NCBI GenBank assembly: GCA_905235635.1
Contig: CAJOMC010000007.1
Location: forward strand, 18,998 to 82,997
Origin: an uncultured Bacilli bacterium
Lineage (GTDB): Bacteria; Bacillota_I; Bacilli_A; Izemoplasmatales; UBA1188
Length of the DNA: 64,000 nt
Direction: 5' to 3'
A program made the position numbers and the translations under genes. Numbering within the stretch: the stretch's first letter is position 1; every line of letters begins with the position of its first letter. The notes under the pieces were generated by a model, which had not been told where the DNA came from, made no database searches, and saw only the letters and a list, made by a program, of their open reading frames with translations. This document shows, in pieces, positions 36,187 to 46,487 of the stretch.

Positions 36187-37542
36187 GTGGATAAATATGA
36201 TGTTATTTACATCGGTAGCGGCCACGCATGTTGGCATGGTGCTTTGATACTAAAAATGCAAGGCAAAAAAGTAGCTCTCGTTGAAAAAGAATTACTAGGT
36301 GGTACATGTACTAACTATGGTTGTGACGCGAAGATTTTACTTGATTCACCAATTGAATTAAAAGAGGCTTTAGACCGCTATCAAAATATTGGTCTTTCAA
36401 AACAGGCAGAAATTAATTGGAACAGTTTAATGCAATACAAGAAAAATGTAATTGGTTTTATGCCTAGTGCCCTCGATGGCTTATTTAAGAATTTCGGTTT
36501 TGATATTATTAGGGGGGCTGCAAAGTTAATTGATGCTCACACTATTGAAGTAGAGAATAAAAAATATTATGCTGATTATTTTGTTATCGGTACTGGCCAA
36601 ACTTATGTACCACTTGATATCCCTGGAAAAGAATACTTTAAGGATTCTCGCGATTTCTTGTCTTTAGATAATATCCCTAAATGTGTTACTTTTGTTGGTG
36701 CTGGTATTATTGGTATGGAATTTGCATCTATCTGTTTATCTCTTGGTAAAAAGGTTAATATTGTTGATTTAGCTTCAAATGCACTAAATCAATATGATAA
36801 GAAATATGTTGATTATATTGTAGAAAAGATGAAAAAACAGGGTGCTAATTTCTTATTTAATAGGCACGTTACTTCTTTAGAAAAAGTTAATGAAGATGAA
36901 TATATCTTAAAGACAGAAGAAGGAGATAAAATCAAATCCAACTATGTTTTAGTCGCTGTAGGAAGAAAGGCTAATACTGATGGATTAAATCTTGAAGGAT
37001 TAGGCATTGAATATTCAAATCGTGGTATTAAAGTTGATAATCACCTAAGAACAAGCGTAAAAAATATATATGCTTCTGGTGATGTTATTGATAAGAATGT
37101 TCCTAAATTAACTCCAACCGCAGAATTTGAATCTAACTATATCGCTTTAGATATATTATTACCAGGCTTCCTAAAGAAGAAGATTACTTATCCAGTGATT
37201 CCTAATCTTGTGTTCACTCTACCTCGTATCGGCCAAGTTGGTGTAGATACCAATAAAGCTAAAGAATTAGGATACCGTGTAGAAGAAGTAGAAATAGGTA
37301 AGACAATGTCTTGGGCAAATAAAAATGATGTTAATGAACACATAACATTTGTCTTTAATAATAAAAATGAATTAGTTGGTGCATCTATCTTATCTGATAC
37401 GGCCGGTGAATATCTTGATCTACTAACAATTATCATCAACCAAAAACTCACCGCAAGAGATTTATCAAAAATGATTTTCTCATTCCCAACTACAACTTAT
37501 GGTCTAATTTCAAGTCTATTACCATTAATGTTAAAAAGATAA
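36187..37542 (+). CDS. Pyridine nucleotide-disulfide oxidoreductase (glutathione reductase-like)
   Basis: IGSG, GGTCTNYGCDAK, GAGIIGMEF, IYASGD, PKLTP, FPT. Confidence 0.85.
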   Translation: MDKYDVIYIGSGHACWHGALILKMQGKKVALVEKELLGGTCTNYGCDAKILLDSPIELKEALDRYQNIGLSKQAEINWNSLMQYKKNVIGFMPSALDGLFKNFGFDIIRGAAKLIDAHTIEVENKKYYADYFVIGTGQTYVPLDIPGKEYFKDSRDFLSLDNIPKCVTFVGAGIIGMEFASICLSLGKKVNIVDLASNALNQYDKKYVDYIVEKMKKQGANFLFNRHVTSLEKVNEDEYILKTEEGDKIKSNYVLVAVGRKANTDGLNLEGLGIEYSNRGIKVDNHLRTSVKNIYASGDVIDKNVPKLTPTAEFESNYIALDILLPGFLKKKITYPVIPNLVFTLPRIGQVGVDTNKAKELGYRVEEVEIGKTMSWANKNDVNEHITFVFNNKNELVGASILSDTAGEYLDLLTIIINQKLTARDLSKMIFSFPTTTYGLISSLLPLMLKR

Positions 37543-37661
37543 ATATGTAATAAAGCCGGAATTTGTTTGGTTCCGGTTTTATTATTTATAGACTAATCAA
37601 AACCTCTTTGAATGTGACTTGTCTTAATTTTGTTGTATAATCAAGTAATTGAAATTAATTT

Positions 37662-37976
37662 TTGTTAATACTGAATAAAAAGAATAAAACTCAAATTAAA
37701 AGGACTATAATTATGCAACTAGACAAATATTTTCAAAATGGCTATTTTTTACCCCAAACAATTAAAGATATAGCGAAAAGATATCCGGTTATAAGTGTTG
37801 AATTTTATCCAGGTTCAAAACTATATGACTATTTATCTTTAGATGAAGAAGTAAAAGTTGGGGATAAGAAAATTGTAGTTATTAATGACGAGCCTAAAGA
37901 AGTTACTGTAAAAGCTATCAAATATCTATATGAGGATCAACTTCCTCTTCTGTACTCTAAAATGTCTAAAATCTAA
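37662..37976 (+). CDS. Hypothetical protein, possibly a C-terminal fragment
   Basis: ORF only; start uncertain (ATG ~37713). Confidence 0.45.
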   Translation: MLILNKKNKTQIKRTIIMQLDKYFQNGYFLPQTIKDIAKRYPVISVEFYPGSKLYDYLSLDEEVKVGDKKIVVINDEPKEVTVKAIKYLYEDQLPLLYSKMSKI

Positions 37977-38076
37977 TGCTCTAACATTAGAATAATACAA
38001 AAGCAAAATAAACGCCAATAAATAAGGATAACAACAAGCGGGTTGTTCCGTATTTTGTTTACTATATTTATTATTT

Positions 38077-38116
38077 AATGTAAATATTTTACATTTGGGG
38101 GCAAATGTAATATAAT
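38077..38116 (+). promoter_or_regulatory. Promoter with overlapping palindromic operator(s) for RHH-kinase operon
   Basis: TTTACA-17-TATAAT (38088-38116); perfect TTACATTTG-GGGG-CAAATGTAA at 38089-38110 and AATGTAAA-TAT-TTTACATT at 38077-38095. Confidence 0.7.
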
Positions 38117-38135
38117 ATTGTTGGTGGAGGTTCAA

Positions 38136-38522
38136 ATGTTCAATCAGAAAGAATATATTAATAAATTTATTAAGAATAATTATAAGTCAATAAAAATTAG
38201 AATACGTAATGACGACGCAATAATAATTAAAAAAATAAATGAGGTTGGAAATATTAATAAATATATCACTAATTTGATACTAGAAGACATTTATAAAACA
38301 CATAAATATAATTTTATTAATGATAGTGTTAAGATTGATTTCGATCTCTCTAAAACTATGCAAGACCTTGTAGACAAAGCTGAAAAGGCTGATATTCTAA
38401 ATGACTTCGGACTATATATGAATCTTGCAGACGCAATTGATTCACAAGGGAAGAAAGAAACAACGCATCATATCATAAGAGAAAGTGAATGGAATAAACT
38501 AGTAAGGAGATATTGCTTATGA
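38136..38522 (+). CDS. Putative antitoxin/regulator with N-terminal ribbon-helix-helix-like region
   Basis: NYKSIKIRIRNDD...NINKYITNLILED strand-helix-helix pattern; GGAGG RBS; ATGA overlap with kinase. Confidence 0.55.
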   Translation: MFNQKEYINKFIKNNYKSIKIRIRNDDAIIIKKINEVGNINKYITNLILEDIYKTHKYNFINDSVKIDFDLSKTMQDLVDKAEKADILNDFGLYMNLADAIDSQGKKETTHHIIRESEWNKLVRRYCL

Positions 38523-39478
38523 TTGAATTAATTGATTTTACAAATTATCCTTTAAGTTCTAGAAACCTTGAATATGGTGGTAGGGCTGGTGAGAAGAAGG
38601 GCATTATCTTCAATAATACCTTCTGGTTTTTAAAATTCCCCAAAAACACCCTCGGTATGAAAAGAGTAGGTAGCTTAAAATATGTAACATCTCCTTTAAG
38701 TGAGTTTATAGGAAGCAATATATATAAAATATTGGGATATGATGTACACGAAACCAAGCTTGGCATTTGCTATGATGGTGTTAAATACAAAGTGGTTTGT
38801 GCATGTAAAGATTTTATCAGTGATGATAGAAACGAATTACTTATACCTTACACAGCATTAAGAAACGATACTAATCCTAAGGTTATGTATAAAGATGAAG
38901 ATTACTCCTTATCTGCATCAAGTTTAAATGAAATAATTATGCAACTTAATAATAATACAGTGTTAAGTACTATAACAGGTGCAAAAGAAAGGTTTTGGGA
39001 TGTTGTTGTAATTGATATGTTGATTAATAATAATGACAGAAATGAGGATAATTGGGGCGTAATCAAAAACAAAACTAATAATGAGTATTATCTATCGCCA
39101 ATCTACGATTGTGGAAATTGTTTTTATGGAAAGGCAAGTGAGGAACACATTAGCAATTTATTAACTGATAATGAAAAATTATATAGTAGTGCTTTGAATG
39201 GTATTACCGCTTACGAAGACGCGAACGAAAATAGAATTAGAAATCTTGACATCTTAACTATAAACAATGTCGATTTAGAAGAGTCTATAATGCGTGTATA
39301 TAAACTTATAATAAATAAAAAAGATGATATTATAAGTTTTATCAACAACATTCCTGAGGTTTATAATAACATTCCAATAATGAGTGTTGAAAGAAAGAAG
39401 TATTATATTGCAACTTTTGAATTAAGGCTTAAAAATATTCTTGAACCTAAATATAACGGATTAGTTAATGGTAAATAA
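38519..39478 (+). CDS. HipA/CtkA-like kinase (putative toxin)
   Basis: GGRAGEK Gly loop, LKFPK, SEFIG, ACKDF, NNDRNEDNWG, LSPIYDCG. Confidence 0.8.
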   Translation: MIELIDFTNYPLSSRNLEYGGRAGEKKGIIFNNTFWFLKFPKNTLGMKRVGSLKYVTSPLSEFIGSNIYKILGYDVHETKLGICYDGVKYKVVCACKDFISDDRNELLIPYTALRNDTNPKVMYKDEDYSLSASSLNEIIMQLNNNTVLSTITGAKERFWDVVVIDMLINNNDRNEDNWGVIKNKTNNEYYLSPIYDCGNCFYGKASEEHISNLLTDNEKLYSSALNGITAYEDANENRIRNLDILTINNVDLEESIMRVYKLIINKKDDIISFINNIPEVYNNIPIMSVERKKYYIATFELRLKNILEPKYNGLVNGK

Positions 39479-39508
39479 TAGAATACTAATTAACTATTAC
39501 GTGAAATT

Positions 39509-39682
39509 GCTAGATATAGTGATATTACACAGTATAAAAGGATGAGACAATTCTCATCCTTTTATATTACCAAGACCCCTTATACCTTACACCAATTTAT
39601 CTGTGTAATAGCCAATACGCTTGCTCTTATTAAATATTGGTTCATAAATATTTTCTTTAAGGTCAATTCCCACTAATTTACA
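39509..39682. repeat. Diverged direct-repeat copy of plsC-like 3' end plus terminator (other copy 42223-42397)
   Basis: Minus strand reads CKLVGIDLKENIYEPIFNKSKRIGYYTDK/(1-nt deletion)/GVRYKGSW*, versus intact CRLVGIDPKENIYEPIFNKSKRIDYYTDKYGVGYKGSW*; same AAAAGGATGAG/CTCATCCTTTT hairpin. Confidence 0.92.
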
Positions 39683-39811
39683 AGCTTTTCGCGTTTACAT
39701 GCATAGTTTGGATTCCATAACCATCATAATTCTAATAAATTGTTTAGTACCTATTTTGTGGTGTGTGGGTTTTGCCTGTTTCAGTGTTCGCCGTCATTAG
39801 ATCTTAACATT

Positions 39812-40306
39812 TCATTCATTTTTGCCTATAGGAAAATCATACTTATTGAGTAAATCGATATAAGCCTGCTCTAAAAGTTCTGGTCTCAATGTTTTAGATG
39901 CAGCAAGGAGAGTATCAAACTCCCTTTTAAATTCTCCAATTGCATTATCATATGATATTAATTGTGTACTATAATGGTTGAACATATCAGAAAAGCCACC
40001 ACTAATTTTAAATAAACCACTCGATTCTAATTCGAGAATATAAGTAGCTGCATCTTTATATGTTCTAATGCTTTTATCTTCTAAACCATTTTGCCTACCT
40101 AAAAGTAAATAATCTAAAGATATGTCAGGCTTTTTTGCAATAATAATCAAGTAAGTTGGTGATGGAAAAGAGTGTCCATTTTCCCACCCACTAATCATTT
40201 GAACAGTTGGTGCCCCGATAAGTTCTCTAAACTCCTCTTGATTTAGTTTTTTTGATTTTCTAATTTCGGCAATACGTTTGCCGACTTCTTCTTTTGTCTC
40301 ATTCAT
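39812..40306 (-). CDS. XRE-family HTH regulator
   Basis: IRKSKKLNQEEF...VQMISGWENGHSFP...SLDYLLLG. Confidence 0.85.
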   Translation of the reverse strand: MNETKEEVGKRIAEIRKSKKLNQEEFRELIGAPTVQMISGWENGHSFPSPTYLIIIAKKPDISLDYLLLGRQNGLEDKSIRTYKDAATYILELESSGLFKISGGFSDMFNHYSTQLISYDNAIGEFKREFDTLLAASKTLRPELLEQAYIDLLNKYDFPIGKNE

Positions 40307-40529
40307 AAATATGCCCTCTACTTATTTAAACAAATAAATTATAACAACAAAACTTATTAAAATTGTTTTTTAAGTAAACTCGTCTAAGAAAATTACTTTA
40401 ATATACTATGTTTTCACGTATGACCCAAAAACATATTTTTTAAAAAAGTGGGGTTATATTAAAGGTAGTTGAACGCGAAATAGTTTTGCCAAATCCTAAC
40501 TAATAAATTTAAAACTGCGAGGTGATTTT

Positions 40530-41204
40530 GTGAAAAAAATGAAAATGGACGATGACTTCCAAAATTATTTAGTTGTAGGGGCAGTTTTTGATGGAGAAGC
40601 GGATATTCCATGTATGATGAGGATGGATAACGTGATAATTCCTAAAAAAATAGCACCATATACTGCCAGAAAAAGAATAAAGAATCCTAATGTATTTTTG
40701 CATTGTTTCATTCACGATTTTCAGTTTTCTAATTTAATTACTGAAACGAAAAAACATGTTGAAGAAATAACAATATTTGATGGAATTATATGTCCTGATC
40801 CGACAATAACCATCGGTGGGTCACGGACAATTAACCAAGCTCAGGTTTATTTTTCTAGAGCAGTAGGGTTTTACCTCCAGAAACACGGTATTTTTGCAAT
40901 TCCTTGTGTTAGATGGGGCGATCCATCAACATATGATTATTGTTTTCTTGGTGTACCTCAAGATTATATTATTGCCATCAGCACACATGGTTGCATTATG
41001 CCGTGTAGGGAAAATAATAATGAATTACGTAACGCATTTATAAAGGGGCTACCTATTATGTTAGAAAAACTAAGACCAAAATACGTAATTGTTTATGGAA
41101 GAATGCCTGATGAAATCTTTGATCCATATAAATCAATGACAACGTTCATTAATTTTGAAAGTGATTTACAAGTATATTTTGATAAAAGAAAGGAGAAATT
41201 ATAA
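40530..41204 (+). CDS. DUF4417-like protein
   Basis: HCFIHDFQF, ICPD, GIFAIPCVRWG, CFLGVP, IAISTHG, VIVYG pattern recognised from memory of the family; GAGGTG RBS, GTG start. Confidence 0.7.
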   Translation: MKKMKMDDDFQNYLVVGAVFDGEADIPCMMRMDNVIIPKKIAPYTARKRIKNPNVFLHCFIHDFQFSNLITETKKHVEEITIFDGIICPDPTITIGGSRTINQAQVYFSRAVGFYLQKHGIFAIPCVRWGDPSTYDYCFLGVPQDYIIAISTHGCIMPCRENNNELRNAFIKGLPIMLEKLRPKYVIVYGRMPDEIFDPYKSMTTFINFESDLQVYFDKRKEKL

Positions 41205-41205
41205 T

Positions 41206-41586
41206 ACGGGTGTTAGAATTCATTACGTTGGAAGAAAACAGCAGTTTCATTCGCTTGAACAAAATATAGGTTCGACTATCACTAAGTATCCAATAACTAA
41301 TGGTTACTTTGGTGTTAAAGGATCTTCTTTTGGAATTAGAGAAATACACTCTAGAAATCACGAAGAAACTGCAAAAGATTTCTTTAATAAAATTGCAAAA
41401 GGTGGTATTCTTGATTTACATACAATTAAAGGTGGGGTTATTTCAAGATTAAAAGATGGCACTTTTGTTTCTTATAGAAAAATAACTAGTTCAAATAACA
41501 GCCCAGCAGTAGAAATAAGGTTCCGAAAATTAGGTTCAAAATACGGAATCAAAGATCAAAAAATACATTTTGTGCAAAATAAATAA
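41206..41586 (+). CDS. Small basic toxin-like protein (start codon appears to be ACG)
   Basis: AGGAG at 41191-41195 precedes in-frame ACG-GGT; AKDFF..GG..LKDGTFVSYR..SSNNSPAVEI..KIHF resembles polymorphic-toxin RNase tips. Confidence 0.5.
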   Translation, partial: TGVRIHYVGRKQQFHSLEQNIGSTITKYPITNGYFGVKGSSFGIREIHSRNHEETAKDFFNKIAKGGILDLHTIKGGVISRLKDGTFVSYRKITSSNNSPAVEIRFRKLGSKYGIKDQKIHFVQNK

Positions 41587-42160
41587 ATTGGAGGATAATA
41601 TTATTATGATAGATATTTGTTTAAAGAATGAAGAAAAGAACCTTCTAAAAAGTTTAATTGGAAAAAAACTAATCAAATATAGACATGACCCGCTAGACAA
41701 ATTTGATGGAGAAATAGTCTATGGGAGAGTTGAATTATTTTTTGATAATTTGATAATTTTGATTGATTATGATTATGCCCCCTATCCGCTATTTGGTAGT
41801 TTAGATGATGAACGCCCAGCGTTTTCTGTGAAAAAGATTTCTAGTGAAGAAGCGGTTTCGGCTTTAAAAGATGTTTCTCAAATAAATGTTGTATGCGAGA
41901 AAATTATTTCAGGAATAGTGCTTGTCGAAGATTACATCGAAATCGAATGGGATAGAAAGAAGGATAACACTAGATATATTAAAGCGATTATATTTAAATT
42001 TGGAGAAGAAGAGATGGCCTTACAAGGCGACTATATGATACCTTTGCTTGATATTATTAAAGGCGAAAATGTAGTATCTAGACTTCTCAATCCAGGTGAT
42101 GAATTTAAAGAAGATCTAGAAACTAAATATAGTGCTGACAGGTTTCTTGTTGAATTATAA
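41570..42160 (+). CDS. Acidic hypothetical protein, possible immunity protein
   Basis: Follows toxin-like ORF; GGAGG RBS suggests true ATG ~41606; D/E-rich. Confidence 0.55.
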   Translation: MCKINKLEDNIIMIDICLKNEEKNLLKSLIGKKLIKYRHDPLDKFDGEIVYGRVELFFDNLIILIDYDYAPYPLFGSLDDERPAFSVKKISSEEAVSALKDVSQINVVCEKIISGIVLVEDYIEIEWDRKKDNTRYIKAIIFKFGEEEMALQGDYMIPLLDIIKGENVVSRLLNPGDEFKEDLETKYSADRFLVEL

Positions 42161-42280
42161 CTAATCATCAACTAAAGCTGATGCGAGATATATTGTTATC
42201 CAAACTTTTGTTAATGTAAACGGCTAAATATAGCGATATAACATAATATAAAAGGATGAGTTCACTCTCATCCTTTTATA

Positions 42281-43147
42281 CTACCATGACCCCTTATACC
42301 CTACACCATATTTGTCTGTATAATAGTCTATACGCTTACTTTTATTAAATATTGGTTCATATATATTTTCTTTAGGATCAATTCCAACCAACCTACATAC
42401 TGCATCATGTGACCTAATCGTTAAATCCTCTATAGCATCTTTTTCGTTTAAGTCTTTATTAGGATAGATTGGTTCACCAATATTAAGAGTTAAACTCGCT
42501 GGACTTTTAAACATTTTCTTTCTGATAAATCCGTTTTCTCTATATGATATTCCAAGAGGAAGAATAGGTTTATTACATTTAACACTAAAATATGATGCAC
42601 CTTCTTTAAAAGGCCTTATAGGCATATAGAATTCCCACATAGATCCTTCTGGATATACATGAAATAATCCACCATTATTTATAAATCGCTCTATATCATT
42701 AAAACATTTTGCGTTTACTCTTGGTTCTGAATCGGGGAATGGTACTCCACCAATCATTCTAATCATCTTACCATTTTCACCCTTAATATTTGGTGCCCAC
42801 ACTATTACTCTAGTATTAAATTTCCATAAAGCGTTTTTGATTAATATATAATCCCACATTGCCACGTGGTTACAGATTGTTACTGCACCTTTTTCAAGGA
42901 CGTGTCTATATTTCTTTAAGTTTTTTCTACCTTTAACCCTTAAATTAAATCTCACATATGACATAGGATTAACTATATATCTAAGCAGAAGATTAAAAAA
43001 GAAAGTCTTTCTTTTAAATTCTTTAGAATCATCCACGTATTTATATTTAGTATCAAAAACAGTACCATCGTCTTTCTTAACTTTTAGGTAATGTTCGTCA
43101 GTATATTCAGTATATGGAAATTTATTCGTTTTAGGATCGAAAGGCAT
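42281..43147 (-). CDS. PlsC-like 1-acyl-sn-glycerol-3-phosphate acyltransferase
   Basis: CNHVAMWD (NHxxxxD), YPEG, PFKEGA, ILP. Confidence 0.85.
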   Translation of the reverse strand: MPFDPKTNKFPYTEYTDEHYLKVKKDDGTVFDTKYKYVDDSKEFKRKTFFFNLLLRYIVNPMSYVRFNLRVKGRKNLKKYRHVLEKGAVTICNHVAMWDYILIKNALWKFNTRVIVWAPNIKGENGKMIRMIGGVPFPDSEPRVNAKCFNDIERFINNGGLFHVYPEGSMWEFYMPIRPFKEGASYFSVKCNKPILPLGISYRENGFIRKKMFKSPASLTLNIGEPIYPNKDLNEKDAIEDLTIRSHDAVCRLVGIDPKENIYEPIFNKSKRIDYYTDKYGVGYKGSW

Positions 43148-43327
43148 TTATAATAATCTCTTCTTTTAATTGAAATTATATATAAAAATATATTTCAAGT
43201 AAACATTATTTATTCTCTAGTTAATAGATATTAAAATGAATATAAAAACAATAATAAATAAGTATTAAAATTTTTTAATTATTTCTTGAATATTATATAT
43301 TCATTTGATACAATAAATACGCACGAA

Positions 43328-43360
43328 CTTTCTATGGCAATAAGGCCATGGCAGAAGGAG
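43328..43360 (+). promoter_or_regulatory. L31 leader hairpin sequestering the rpmE RBS
   Basis: CTTTCT-ATGGC-AATAAG-GCCAT-GGC-AGAAGG(AG). Confidence 0.55.
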
Positions 43361-43366
43361 TTATAT

Positions 43367-43585
43367 ATGAAAAAAGGAATCCATCCTAAATACTACGAAG
43401 CAACTGTTACTTGCGTAACTTGCGGAACAACATTTAAAACTGGTTCAACTAGACCTGAAATAAAAGTTGATACTTGTTCTAATTGTCATCCATTCTATTC
43501 AGGAAAACAAGTTTTCGTATCTGTTGCTGGTAGAGTTGATAAGTTCAACAAGAAATATGGAAGAACCTCAAAAACCGAGGACTAA
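43367..43585 (+). CDS. rpmE: 50S ribosomal protein L31 (zinc-binding type A)
   Basis: [28 protein letters not shown]; start corrected to ATG 43367. Confidence 0.96.
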
Positions 43586-43635
43586 GACAAACAAAAACCA
43601 GGTATCTGGTTTTTTGTTTAAATGAAGGAGATTAT

Positions 43636-44208
43636 ATGAAGATTGGAAGAATTGAAGCTATAGTAGGCCCAATGTTTGCGGGTAAAACAGAAGAATTACT
43701 AAGACGTCTTAAAAGAATGGAATATGCTCATAAAAATGTCATACTATTTAAACCTGATATCGACACAAGATATGAGGAAAGTTATGTAGTATCACACAAT
43801 AAGAATAAATCTTTATGTGTATGCTTAAAAAAGTCAGTTGATATGTTTAACTATGTAACTGATAAGACAGATGCAATCTTTATTGATGAATTCCAGTTTT
43901 TAGATGACGAATCTTTCATCGCACTTAAAAGAAGAGGCATAAGAATAGTTTTATCCGGTCTTGATAAAGACTTTAGAGGAGAACCTTTTGGCGTTATGCC
44001 AAATGTACTCGCACTTGCGGATGAAGTATTAAAGCTTAGAGCCGTATGTGTTAAATGTGGTGCTGATGCAAACTGTACACAACGTATCATCAATAATAGT
44101 CCAGCTTCATATAATGACCCTATCATCTTAGTAGGCGCTACAGATTCTTATGAGGCAAGATGCGATGCTTGTTTTGAAATAAAAGATAAAAAATATAAGT
44201 ATGAATGA
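43636..44208 (+). CDS. tdk: Thymidine kinase
   Basis: GPMFAGKTEEL, DEFQF, GLDKDFRGEPF, YEARC. Confidence 0.95.
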   Translation: MKIGRIEAIVGPMFAGKTEELLRRLKRMEYAHKNVILFKPDIDTRYEESYVVSHNKNKSLCVCLKKSVDMFNYVTDKTDAIFIDEFQFLDDESFIALKRRGIRIVLSGLDKDFRGEPFGVMPNVLALADEVLKLRAVCVKCGADANCTQRIINNSPASYNDPIILVGATDSYEARCDACFEIKDKKYKYE

Positions 44209-44641
44209 TTATGATTTTATGAGAGAAGCGCTAAACTTAGCGAGTTCCTCGTATCAAAATTGTGAAGTTCCCGTAGGCGCCGTTGTAGCGTATAATGGCG
44301 AAATTATTGGTAGAGGAAGAAATAGAAGAAAAGAAACATGTGACATCACATCACATGCAGAAATAGAGGCAATAAAAGAGGCTTCTAAACATCTTTCTTC
44401 CTATATCCTTGAAGGATGTACCATCTATACCACGCTTGAACCATGTCCAATGTGTAGTTATGCGATTATTGATTCACATATGGATAGACTAGTATATGGC
44501 GCAAAAGATGAAAAAAGAGGTGCCATATCTAACCTTGATATATTCAATAAGCATCTTGGCACAAAAGTAGTAGTTTGTGGTAATATAATGAGTGAGGAGG
44601 CGAGTGAACTTCTCACAAAATTCTTTAAAGAAAAAAGATAA
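44201..44641 (+). CDS. tadA: tRNA adenosine deaminase
   Basis: EVPVGAV, HAE, TLEPCPMC. Confidence 0.92.
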   Translation: MNDYDFMREALNLASSSYQNCEVPVGAVVAYNGEIIGRGRNRRKETCDITSHAEIEAIKEASKHLSSYILEGCTIYTTLEPCPMCSYAIIDSHMDRLVYGAKDEKRGAISNLDIFNKHLGTKVVVCGNIMSEEASELLTKFFKEKR

Positions 44642-44642
44642 T

Positions 44643-44747
44643 CTCTTTTCGTGTATTACACTCAAAGTTCTTAGAGTGAATTGGGTCAGGTCCTGACGGA
44701 AGCAGCCCTAAGGTTTAAGTCTTGTGAGTGTAGTACACTAAAAGAGA
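44643..44747 (+). ncRNA. ffs: Signal recognition particle RNA (small, 4.5S-type)
   Basis: GGGTCAGGTCCTGACGGAAGCAGCCC domain IV within a long hairpin GTGTATTACACTCA...TGAGTGTAGTACAC; tadA-ffs synteny. Confidence 0.9.
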
Positions 44748-46487
44748 TTATTTTTCTATTATAAAATATGATTTAACTCCATCACTAAAGTTAGTTACTT
44801 CATGTGGAATATTATGCGTAGATAATATCTTTCTTACTAGGTATAAACCCATACCAGTTGAATTCTTATCAATATTATTGTTTTCTCTATAAAATGGTAG
44901 CCATATTTTTTCTAGATTTTCTGGATTAATATGTGCCCCATAGTTTTTAACTTCAAATATATAATTCACATTATTATCAAGCAAGTTGATTTCAACTTTC
45001 TTTCCCTTATCAGTATATTTAAATGCGTTAGTAATAAAGTTAGATATAACTTCACCGATTAGTTTTCTATCAGCGTTCATATATATCTGATTATCAATAT
45101 TTGTTTCCACAATGATTTCGTTTTTACTTGCGATAGGAGATAAAGGGCTTAAAACTTCTTCAATTAACTTACCTAAATTAAATCTTGTGACATTAAGTTT
45201 TACTTCTTCTTTAGATCCTCTATATGTAGAAATAATATTTTTAATAATAGTATTAGTTTTTTCAACTTCCTCAAGAATATTGTCATATTCTTTTAATACA
45301 TCATCACCCTCTATTATTCCATCTTTTAGAGCTTCGGTTGTTGCGCTTATTACCATAATAGGTGTTTTAAGCTCATGGGATAATCTTGAGATGAATGAAC
45401 TTCTAATTTCGTTTTCATTTAAGAGTTCCGAATTGAGTTTTTCTACTCTCTCTTTTTGAGATTCAATCTCATGAACTCTTTCTTTAGTTTTCTCTTTAAC
45501 GAAGTTTAAGTTATCTTGGAGGCTAATTAACTCTTTATTTCTAAATGTGTGGTCAGATTTAGTGTAATCCTCATTGACTAGTTTCATCATCTCGTTTTCA
45601 ATTGTCTTAACTGGATTAGTGAAGGCTCTTGAGATAAAGAGCGCTATTAGTAAGACTATCGCTAAAGAGAAGAGAATAAAGTATCCATAATACGGAGATA
45701 TAAGAGATACAAGAGAACTTGTGTTAACCATATCAAAGATGATTAGCACAAACTCTCCTTCAACGTTAGTTGTATATAATATATTTAAAGTATATGTTTC
45801 TTTATCGTTATAGTATCCCACAAGATATGGGATATCTTTTTTAACTATCTTAAAGTTTGTGATAGATGAGGTAATTATATTAATAGAGTCTTTTACTTTT
45901 GACCATGATCCATAGATATAATTTAGGTTAACTGGTTTTCTTACTTCTATGATTGTTGCATCTTCTAGATACACAAGATCACTTGAATCAATATAAGATT
46001 TATCTATAACTTTTCTATCACCAATAAAAAAAGATAGAGGGATATAATACTCTCCTTCTTTCACAAATACGCCACTCGCAAGGAAAGAAGTAGACACATC
46101 AACGCTTAAATCATCTATTAAAACCTCATATGTTTCACCACTACTAGATAACAAAACAGTATATTTATCATATTGAGACTCTGATGGTTTATATACTCCT
46201 GTTTCATTGGTAAGCATCACAACCAAAGAAGAAGTGCTATTTGCGAAAGCTTCTATAGTTTTTGAGTGATTTATGCCTTCCTCATTAATATCACCAATTA
46301 GAAGAGTAGTAGATGCGAGTCTTTCGTCTATTTCACTTCTTGTGTAACGATTATTAAAAGAATACATTACGATAATGTATTCCGCTACTACTAACACAAA
46401 AAACACTATTATTAAAATTAAGAATAGTTGTGTTTGAAGTGATATATTATGAATTTTCTTCTCTAGTTCGTTCTTCTGTGATTTCAA
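44748..46487 (-). CDS. Sensor histidine kinase
   Basis: Two TMs, SHELKTP, NFITNAFKY, GMGL. Confidence 0.92.
   Translation of the reverse strand: MKSQKNELEKKIHNISLQTQLFLILIIVFFVLVVAEYIIVMYSFNNRYTRSEIDERLASTTLLIGDINEEGINHSKTIEAFANSTSSLVVMLTNETGVYKPSESQYDKYTVLLSSSGETYEVLIDDLSVDVSTSFLASGVFVKEGEYYIPLSFFIGDRKVIDKSYIDSSDLVYLEDATIIEVRKPVNLNYIYGSWSKVKDSINIITSSITNFKIVKKDIPYLVGYYNDKETYTLNILYTTNVEGEFVLIIFDMVNTSSLVSLISPYYGYFILFSLAIVLLIALFISRAFTNPVKTIENEMMKLVNEDYTKSDHTFRNKELISLQDNLNFVKEKTKERVHEIESQKERVEKLNSELLNENEIRSSFISRLSHELKTPIMVISATTEALKDGIIEGDDVLKEYDNILEEVEKTNTIIKNIISTYRGSKEEVKLNVTRFNLGKLIEEVLSPLSPIASKNEIIVETNIDNQIYMNADRKLIGEVISNFITNAFKYTDKGKKVEINLLDNNVNYIFEVKNYGAHINPENLEKIWLPFYRENNNIDKNSTGMGLYLVRKILSTHNIPHEVTNFSDGVKSYFIIEK

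Follow-up and report, generated by a model that had tools for sequence, protein, structure and literature searches.

We analysed a stretch of 64,000 nucleotides (hereafter the window) on contig CAJOMC010000007.1 (C7) of the assembly GCA_905235635.1, an uncultured Bacilli bacterium of the order Izemoplasmatales (1.37 Mb in 44 contigs, about 30% G+C, rated 97.9% complete), in which a 2.35-kb module encoding an XRE regulator, a DUF4417 protein and two unnamed proteins lies between two diverged direct copies of the 3' end of a PlsC-family acyltransferase gene. The comparison of the two copies gives good support to the view that a resident gene end was displaced and that the end which the gene now carries is of foreign origin. 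The explanation we favour, with a probability of roughly 0.4, is 3'-end displacement by incoming DNA, which would have recombined by homology through the neighbouring gene on one side and been joined illegitimately on the other side. A recombinase-free route of this kind seems at least as likely as an integrase or satellite mechanism, which is possible as well. The event is of a known kind at a new target, and the cassette is an undescribed, recurrent one.

Structure of the locus and divergence of the two gene ends

The intact acyltransferase gene lies on the minus strand at 42281..43147 and encodes 288 amino acids (Pfam PF01553, 9.8e-15). Its present 3' end forms the right direct repeat (42218..42397, minus strand), consisting of coding sequence at 42281-42397, a hairpin at 42244-42283 and about 25 nt beyond, and the left direct repeat (39504..39682, minus strand) holds the frameshifted, displaced last 39 codons (coding 39567-39682) with a hairpin at 39531-39569 and again about 25 nt beyond. 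Local alignment of 39509-39682 with 42223-42397 gave 149 identical columns out of 175 and a single gap of 1 nt, a base that the left copy lacks after 39594; a repeat search returned two pairs, 39504-39594 / 42218-42308 and 39595-39682 / 42310-42397, each 85% identical, and under looser scoring the match extends to 39492 and 42203. The repeat continues for at least 63 nt beyond the stop codon, through the hairpin. Genome-wide, the direct-repeat sequence occurs in two copies only (E values of 1.5e-113 for the self-match and of 3.0e-51 for the left copy), and the remaining matches of this query were the hairpin matching itself or had E values of 0.006 or more. No third copy of the gene end was found between 30000 and 52000 of the window, the best local scores being 28 and 33 in comparison to a maximum of 42 for shuffled queries. 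An earlier note, made from the letters of this DNA, had described the diverged direct copies together with bipartite inverted repeats just inside them, and both were confirmed by alignment and by shuffles.

The coding parts of the two copies differ by 16 substitutions in 116 aligned nt, with 1, 3 and 12 of them at codon positions 1, 2 and 3, respectively. The probability of at least 12 of 16 falling at third positions, given a chance of one third, is 8e-4. These values are close to the earlier hand count of about 17 differences, mostly at third positions, and the 1-nt deletion in the left copy was found as described. By the Nei-Gojobori method, 11 synonymous steps were counted over 21.3 sites and 4 non-synonymous steps over 89.7 sites, corresponding to a synonymous divergence (dS) of 0.87, a non-synonymous divergence (dN) of 0.046 and a dN/dS ratio of 0.053. 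At three of the four amino-acid differences (P257L, D273G and G282R) the left copy is unusual at residues conserved among orthologues, which agree with the right copy, and the frameshift caused by the deletion is found in the left copy alone. For a copy made in place and then decaying, about three non-synonymous changes would be expected for each synonymous one. The large synonymous excess thus suggests that the two ends diverged as functional orthologues in two lineages before they came to share one genome; judged by their substitutions, both evolved as working ends and the left one decayed a little afterwards. The right copy would then be the one that arrived with the insert, and the left copy the displaced original. 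The proposal of the earlier note that the insert supplied the current 3' end and displaced the old one is upheld by the same measurements, namely the dN/dS and dS values, the three unusual residues and the frameshift confined to the left copy.

The same substitution counts bear on a duplication made in place, or a remnant of a tandem paralogue, with the cassette inserted later between the copies, which we consider highly unlikely. Such an origin would agree with the observation that the two copies would lie in tandem if the segment bounded by the inverted repeats were excised, and with the presence of 9 PF01553 genes in the genome, but the 11 synonymous steps versus 4 non-synonymous steps do not fit the decay of a local copy. 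In addition, the similarity ends at 39682, upstream of which the frame reaches a stop within five codons, and no other part of a second gene is present, so that the whole tandem plsC paralogue which the earlier note had named as a competing origin of the left copy finds no trace in the sequence. A locus in another genome (L060, described below) has the same architecture with a different gene, suggesting that the arrival of the cassette and the duplication are linked.

An assembly chimera of two strains differing in this gene end, the other competing origin named earlier, is suggested by the metagenomic source and by the 85% identity of the copies, but is extremely unlikely. A 12,867-nt Logan contig of the run that is probably the source covers 36200-46100 unbroken and without base differences, at an even depth of 68.9; this contig was built from the same reads and is therefore not fully independent of the window assembly. 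Furthermore, a unique 2.5-kb cassette separates the two copies, and the same type of structure is seen in L060 and in a further locus, L070, from other assemblies. A goat-gut run yielded short pieces only, none of them over the island: two, of 189 nt and 344 nt, differ at 2-3 places and one of 319 nt differs at 14.

The hairpins behind the two stop codons fold with -22.6 kcal/mol in the right copy (z -6.2) and -19.1 kcal/mol in the left copy (z -5.3). A simple consensus terminator scan flagged neither, the T-tail having too few T, and it is on their position and stability that we take them as probable terminators. The stems are preserved in both copies and the loops differ, which suggests that the left hairpin may still be in service for the convergent HipA-like gene whose stop lies at 39478.

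Displacement of the gene end by incoming DNA

According to the explanation we favour, in the donor lineage the cassette would have been located just behind the hairpin of an orthologous acyltransferase gene, and donor DNA of the order cassette, hairpin and acyltransferase gene would have entered the lineage of the window. On the gene side the donor DNA would have recombined by homology, and its far end would have become attached illegitimately within the resident gene, 117 nt short of the stop codon. As a consequence, the intact gene would end in donor sequence, and the resident end with its hairpin would have come to lie beyond the cassette, where the displaced coding part would have decayed and the hairpin would have survived as a terminator for the convergent HipA-like gene. 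The joining chemistry could be homology-facilitated illegitimate recombination, or an equivalent single crossover of a circle carrying a fragment of the gene.

This explanation accounts for the orthologue-like divergence of the two ends, for a repeat that runs through the hairpin and beyond, and for the absence of a recombinase gene and conserved ends from all copies. Co-transfer of a stretch of donor chromosome would be expected to leave a repeat that includes the hairpin and at least 63 nt behind the stop codon. The locus has a displaced fragment beyond the new DNA, gene ends from what appear to be two lineages, and neither a recombinase nor conserved ends. In line with a recombinase-free island, the DUF4417 protein is modelled as a TIM barrel and the unnamed protein o143 matches no recombinase fold. 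A comparable C-terminal displacement through illegitimate recombination facilitated by homology has been proposed, in the excerpted part of the source, for effector-immunity modules of type VI secretion systems (T6SS) and for Rhs loci (PMC5361080). As far as that excerpt describes them, those systems share with our explanation the homology anchor in a conserved gene, the illegitimate joining at the other end, the orphan 3' part downstream and the lack of an integrase; their variable tip is itself the payload of toxin and immunity genes, and arrays accumulate. The window, unlike the T6SS and Rhs loci, has a nearly synonymous gene end, an unrelated cassette as the payload and a single displaced copy.

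A second scar of the same kind was observed in L060, where the cassette sits between an ABC-F gene and a gene for the EIIC component of a phosphotransferase system. Beyond the cassette, the EIIC terminator region (74 of 74 nt identical) and part of the EIIC coding sequence (80 of 84 nt) occur again, the far copy having a 260-nt deletion between two GTGAT(G/A)AT words. The coding differences number four: three are synonymous and at third positions, and one, a change of P to H, affects the displaced copy. The repeat begins without spacer at TTATAA, which is common to the stop-codon regions of the ABC-F gene and of the cassette gene o184; as a microhomology at the joint this word is only suggestive. 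The length of the repeat varies, from 175 nt in the window to at least 418 nt in L060. In another locus, L061, an orthologous EIIC gene is immediately followed by the cassette, tRNA genes occupy the opposite side and there is no repeat, from which it follows that the linkage of cassette and EIIC gene is older than the L060 duplication. The variable repeat length and this older linkage of the cassette with its neighbour, seen in L060 and L061, are both accounted for by displacement. L070 was rejected as an independent case, being a deletion derivative of the L060 insertion. As an empty site for L060 we tried genome G183 (L086), the nearest relative in which the arrangement differs, which was found to be too distant: its ABC-F protein is 90% identical, and the ABC-F gene adjoins Mntp, with neither EIIC gene nor cassette. 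Compared with this relative, the EIIC gene may have been among the DNA that moved in the lineage of L060.

Several observations weigh against a displacement of this kind. The closest acyltransferase orthologue found has only 53% protein identity (the best value is 52% in 41 genomes searched and 49-53% in 8 metagenome loci). A dS of 0.87 would mean that the donor and recipient genes were only about 80-85% identical, and RecA-dependent recombination is inefficient at that level. The cassette adjoins tRNA genes in L061, L063 and L067, a classic habit of integrases. The flanking repeat at L065, which had been considered as a parallel case of target duplication, turned out to belong to a dispersed family, and the parallel was dropped. 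Exact bipartite inverted repeats stand no more than 10 nt from both inner borders of the direct repeat, which displacement leaves unexplained, and these inverted repeats look like binding sites of a recombinase or transposase. Finally, gene-3'-end islands with direct repeats are usually made by integrases, and integrase-less relics are common in Bacillota, according to the excerpt of PMC7563491.

Inverted repeats and the possible role of an integrase

The left inverted repeat, CGTTTACAT-N4-AGTTTGGAT, has its core at 39692-39713 and extends over 39687..39713 with 5 further gapped positions, and the right one, ATCCAAACT-N7-ATGTAAACG, has its core at 42198-42222 and extends with gaps over 42198..42228, overlapping the start of the right direct repeat, so that the gapped arms measure 27 and 31 nt. 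The match between the motif at 39692-39713 and its complement at 42198-42222 is exact, and none was expected in 100 shuffles. Joined head to head, the two repeats would form an imperfect palindrome of about 50 bp. Such a palindrome recalls the attP of large serine recombinases, which make no long direct repeat.

The earlier note had suggested scanning for the motif beside recombinase genes, and no further copy of the bipartite motif, nor anything resembling the repeat arms, was found anywhere in the 1.37-Mb genome, including beside its 3 tyrosine and 5 serine recombinase matches. Nor were there ends resembling the inverted repeats on the insertion sequence (IS) contigs C36, C38, C39 and C43. 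In 158 genomes of the order there was no exact copy of the motif, and matches with up to 2 mismatches were as frequent as for a reversed control. The viral contigs had 21 loci with one match each and no inverted pair, and the motif was absent from all the other loci with o184 or the cassette. We also considered the inverted repeats as operators of the XRE protein, which was unsupported, as the six aligned control regions share other blocks and not this motif.

An island made by an integrase and now without one, i.e., a relic resembling a cis-mobilizable element (CIME) or a hitchhiker mobilised in trans, is a close rival of displacement, although we hold it as somewhat less likely. The inverted repeats would then be recombinase sites, bound by a tyrosine integrase as its arm sites or by a large serine recombinase as the halves of its palindromic attP; the attP would have had a likeness to the gene end over about 180 nt, and the recombinase gene would have been deleted or would always have acted in trans. 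This alternative alone explains the exact inverted bipartite motifs at both inner borders, and the synonymous divergence would fit a gene end borne by the element and selected whenever the element was integrated. The recombinase matches in the genome are also in its favour. The motif, however, has no second copy in a genome rated 97.9% complete, and hence there is no helper with matching sites; in the order, too, exact copies are missing and looser matches stay at the control frequency. The other copies of the cassette have neither the motif nor conserved ends nor a neighbouring recombinase, and it is unlikely that separate relics would keep exactly the same four genes and nothing else. In L060, the stop codon of o184 abuts the repeat and leaves no room for an arm site. 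A repeat through the hairpin and beyond exceeds what the repair of a gene would need, the upstream border of the repeat shows no 7-nt identity but only TACA, and no tRNA-end repeats above chance are seen where the cassette adjoins tRNA genes. No joint of about 42397 to about 39683 was listed among the contigs of the probable source run, and contigs cannot reveal rare forms. Site-specific integration with the inverted repeats as arm-type sites, as the earlier note had inferred, is thus no more than possible, in view of the uniqueness of the motif and of other cassettes that have neither motif nor integrase. Its statement that the island encodes no recombinase stands, as none of the four open reading frames (ORFs) belongs to such a family.

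The classic structure of direct repeats with a replacement 3' end is represented by the cryptic prophage e14 in icd of E. coli K-12, which has the icdC fragment at its far end (PMC13626634, in excerpt). As in the window, the excerpt describes an intact gene that continues within the element, a pseudogene fragment of the displaced C-terminus at its far end, a metabolic target, and two ends that differ mostly by synonymous changes with few conservative substitutions. The same excerpt gives e14 a length of 15 kb, its own site-specific recombination system and SOS-induced excision, whereas the window island has 2.5 kb, no recombinase and a repeat that runs through the terminator. The window has the direct repeats and the intact 288-residue target gene of an integrative element and no recombinase gene inside.

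Among streptococcal elements, the 3' ends of fda, rpmG, rpsI and rplL are targets, and CIMEs of 1.2-13 kb are reported to be very frequent (PMC7563491, in excerpt). The CIMEs so described resemble the window in being integrase-less, cargo-bearing elements of 1.2-13 kb in Bacillota with att repeats at gene 3' ends; what defines them, in the account of that excerpt, is that they share att sites with integrative and conjugative elements (ICEs) or integrative and mobilizable elements (IMEs) that have the same target, and it is usually in tandem with these that they are recognised. The window has retained repeats and has no recombination or transfer genes, but unlike CIMEs it lacks shared att sites: no related ICE or IME, shared att motif or tandem partner was found in the genome, in the 158 genomes of the order or among the neighbours. 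The view that a lipid-synthesis acyltransferase is an unusual target was overstated, given that metabolic and ribosomal-protein genes are established targets in the excerpts of both sources (PMC13626634 and PMC7563491).

Terminal inverted repeats on both sides of an insert are also a feature of transposons. The imperfect inverted repeats of 27-31 nt around a transposase-free gene segment make the window similar to mobile insertion cassettes, which are non-autonomous, have terminal inverted repeats and are moved by a transposase acting in trans. Unlike these, the window has no short target-site duplication beside the inverted repeats, there are no other copies of the ends, and the genome holds no IS or transposase that matches them. 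The long diverged direct repeat is not a product of transposition.

Distribution of the cassette in other genomes

Within the order, the marker gene o184 was found in 1 of 158 genomes, namely the present one, which indicates that the cassette was acquired horizontally. The alignment of the o184 cluster was scanned over species-representative genomes and gave 13 loci, mostly in Erysipelotrichaceae, 'Mollicutes' and Bacilli metagenome-assembled genomes (MAGs), with a few in bins labelled Hallerella, Alistipes, Bacteroidaceae and Clostridia. The four genes are present in the same order and orientation in L060, L061, L065, L067 and L072 (the last with frameshifts), truncated cassettes were found in L063, L064 (at a contig end), L069 and L070, and o184 stands alone in L062, L066, L068 and L071. 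Several copies are decaying, with frameshifts in L072 (8198-10550) and internal deletions in L063 (9713-10552), L069 (4346-5123) and L070 (3482-3914), all of which keep o184. Nucleotide similarity of the window to the other cassettes is confined to 39810-42164 and is bounded by two stop codons. The 58 neighbouring ORFs scanned, from all 13 loci, include no recombinase family, the neighbours being housekeeping genes and tRNAs. The module is thus scattered horizontally as a unit and travels with neither a recombinase gene nor conserved ends. By its distribution, the four-gene module is an undescribed and widely scattered one that recurs in gut Bacillota as a stand-alone insert.

A self-contained mobile element of a new kind, inserting by terminators at the ends of genes and tRNAs and duplicating 20-420 nt of the target, is an unlikely origin for this pattern; its mobility would come from one or more of DUF4417, o143 and o184, or from a recruited host pathway. 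It would be consistent with the recurrence of the module alone, without other mobility genes, in at least five neighbourhoods, with the fact that none of the three operon proteins is of known function, and with the position of the cassette in the window, L060 and L067, where it is located between two copies of a stretch with a terminator-like hairpin. In L067 the copies form an 18 of 22 nt repeat within a terminator piece, a value reached by 1 of 300 shuffles. At L061, L063 and L072, however, no tRNA 3'-end or flanking repeats were found above shuffles, so that L061 and L072 lack a duplication of the kind expected. The ends of the cassette are unconserved outside the coding sequence, with variable spacers between cassette and repeat (0-59 nt on one side and 52-129 nt on the other), and the cassette is present once per genome in the five genomes checked. 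The synonymous excess indicates that the two copies in the window did not arise from one template at insertion. The TIM barrel modelled for DUF4417 is nearest to base-exchange enzymes and would not correspond to a known recombinase fold. Lastly, decay has reached several copies, including the frameshifts of L072, the truncations of L063, L069 and L070, and the lost start of o143 in the window itself.

The repeat family at L065 is about 220 nt long and ends in a tRNA-like T-arm and CCA, with no tRNA or Rfam call. One Erysipelotrichaceae MAG has it at 6 places and a relative at 5; intervals of 1.8-3.7 kb, occupied by single genes or small operons, separate the copies (L065 2322-2483, 5974-6252, 8719-8996 and 18355-18422; genome G159, contigs C13 and C88; genome G213, contigs C40 and C42).

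Genes of the cassette

Searches of the four cassette ORFs against Pfam, PHROGs, PADLOC and NCBIfam returned no recombinase or transposase family. The regulator, a helix-turn-helix protein of the XRE family with 164 amino acids (39812..40306, minus strand), matches Pfam HTH_3 (5.1e-10) and PHROG repressor families, with RstR/DicA-like matches in NCBIfam below the cut-offs, and is divergent from the other three genes. The control region between regulator and three-gene operon (40307..40529) has blocks conserved in six cassettes, e.g., AAAAGTGGGGTTATATT, and probably acts as a promoter.

The DUF4417 protein of 224 amino acids (40530..41204, plus strand; Pfam 1.1e-35) was modelled with a predicted local distance difference test (pLDDT) score of 90. 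With an exhaustive aligner, the model was closest to archaeosine tRNA-guanine transglycosylase (Z 9.5), the DNA preQ0 insertase DpdA (9.3) and QTRT2 (8.4), with generic TIM barrels following at Z 8.2 and less; Foldseek gave no match at E <= 0.001. The protein may therefore be a DNA base-exchange enzyme, which we offer as a lead only. DpdA works with a ParB-like partner. The excerpt of a preprint (10.1101/2025.10.10.680097) describes an enrichment of DUF4417 in phages and its frequent fusion to ParB-CTPase folds, and a Streptococcus phage table in the excerpted part of another source places a DUF4417 gene, with a small gene overlapping it, immediately ahead of the terminase genes (PMC8066415). 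In viral contigs, we found DUF4417 at one locus, L051, with 44%.

The unnamed protein o143 (41155..41586, plus strand; model pLDDT 80) overlaps the DUF4417 ORF. Its homologues are about 126 amino acids long and all 24 aligned start with MG, where the window reads ACG at 41206-41208; a Shine-Dalgarno-like AAGGAGA lies just upstream of this codon, and o143 may thus be impaired in the window through loss of its start codon. Its fold had no Foldseek match at E <= 0.001, and no clear structural relative, the best Z obtained with VIA being 5.5, with a contact-dependent inhibition (CDI) toxin chain at 5.0. In the Atlas, o143 is near the tips of RHS/MafB toxins with template modelling (TM) scores of 0.54-0.58, which is under the safe level. 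Its only match in PADLOC was REase_II at E 0.0016, and an unannotated faecal phage record contains one 38% match.

The second unnamed protein, o184 (41606..42160, plus strand; 184 amino acids), which served as the marker for finding the cassette, has relatives in 68 clusters at 50-75% identity, with no Pfam family in any of them and no Atlas family. Neither the viral contigs nor the phage and plasmid collections yielded a match to it, and PADLOC has no family for either DUF4417 or o184.

The target gene and its surroundings

The target should be called a PlsC-family acyltransferase and is not established as a lipid-synthesis plsC. That label of the earlier note goes too far for one of 9 PF01553 genes in the genome, among which the target is only the third-best match, and whose orthologue at E <= 1e-20 was found in 8 of the 41 genomes searched, its own genome (G000) included. 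At the acyltransferase loci of relatives, synteny is not kept and none repeats the gene end, and they yielded no definable empty site; the 18 ORFs beside the orthologues in three relatives include no recombinase, with close relatives being poorly sampled.

Directly left of the displaced gene end, at 38513-39478, is the gene of a 321-residue HipA-like protein, a match to the PADLOC candidate PDC-M03A (8.3e-26) and to Pfam HipA_C (5.3e-6, below the family cut-off). An ORF of 134 amino acids without family overlaps its start, the pair spanning 38118-39478, and the two look like a second accessory module. With this PDC-M03A neighbour, the space behind the acyltransferase gene would be a small accessory-gene region. 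In the thymidine kinase gene, the Logan contig has 9 extra letters behind 43915 of the window, an in-frame length difference between the two assemblies made from these data.

Of the 3 tyrosine recombinase matches in the genome, two are about 310 amino acids long and one, on C17, is 404; the 5 serine recombinase matches are on C2 and C11, and a few transposases are found on small contigs. Four of the serine recombinase matches fall within 32 kb of C2 (109158-141063; 446, 488 and 526 amino acids, and one broken), suggesting one or more integrated elements there.

Implications

Small accessory cassettes without mobility genes account for a large share of the gene content that varies among gut bacteria, and their route of entry can rarely be traced. 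In the window the scar is readable, and the synonymous divergence of the displaced gene end indicates that donor chromosome entered together with the cassette. The possible base-exchange function of the DUF4417 protein is worth a functional test, with phage defence and DNA modification in mind. If the integrase alternative were true, the island would be a CIME that stands by itself at a new target, within a lineage of small-genome gut Bacillota that has been poorly sampled. If the homology-anchored explanation holds, conserved neighbouring genes and their terminators would serve as landing pads through which modules cross species borders integrase-free, and a duplicated terminator would be a mark by which such events could be searched for in MAGs.

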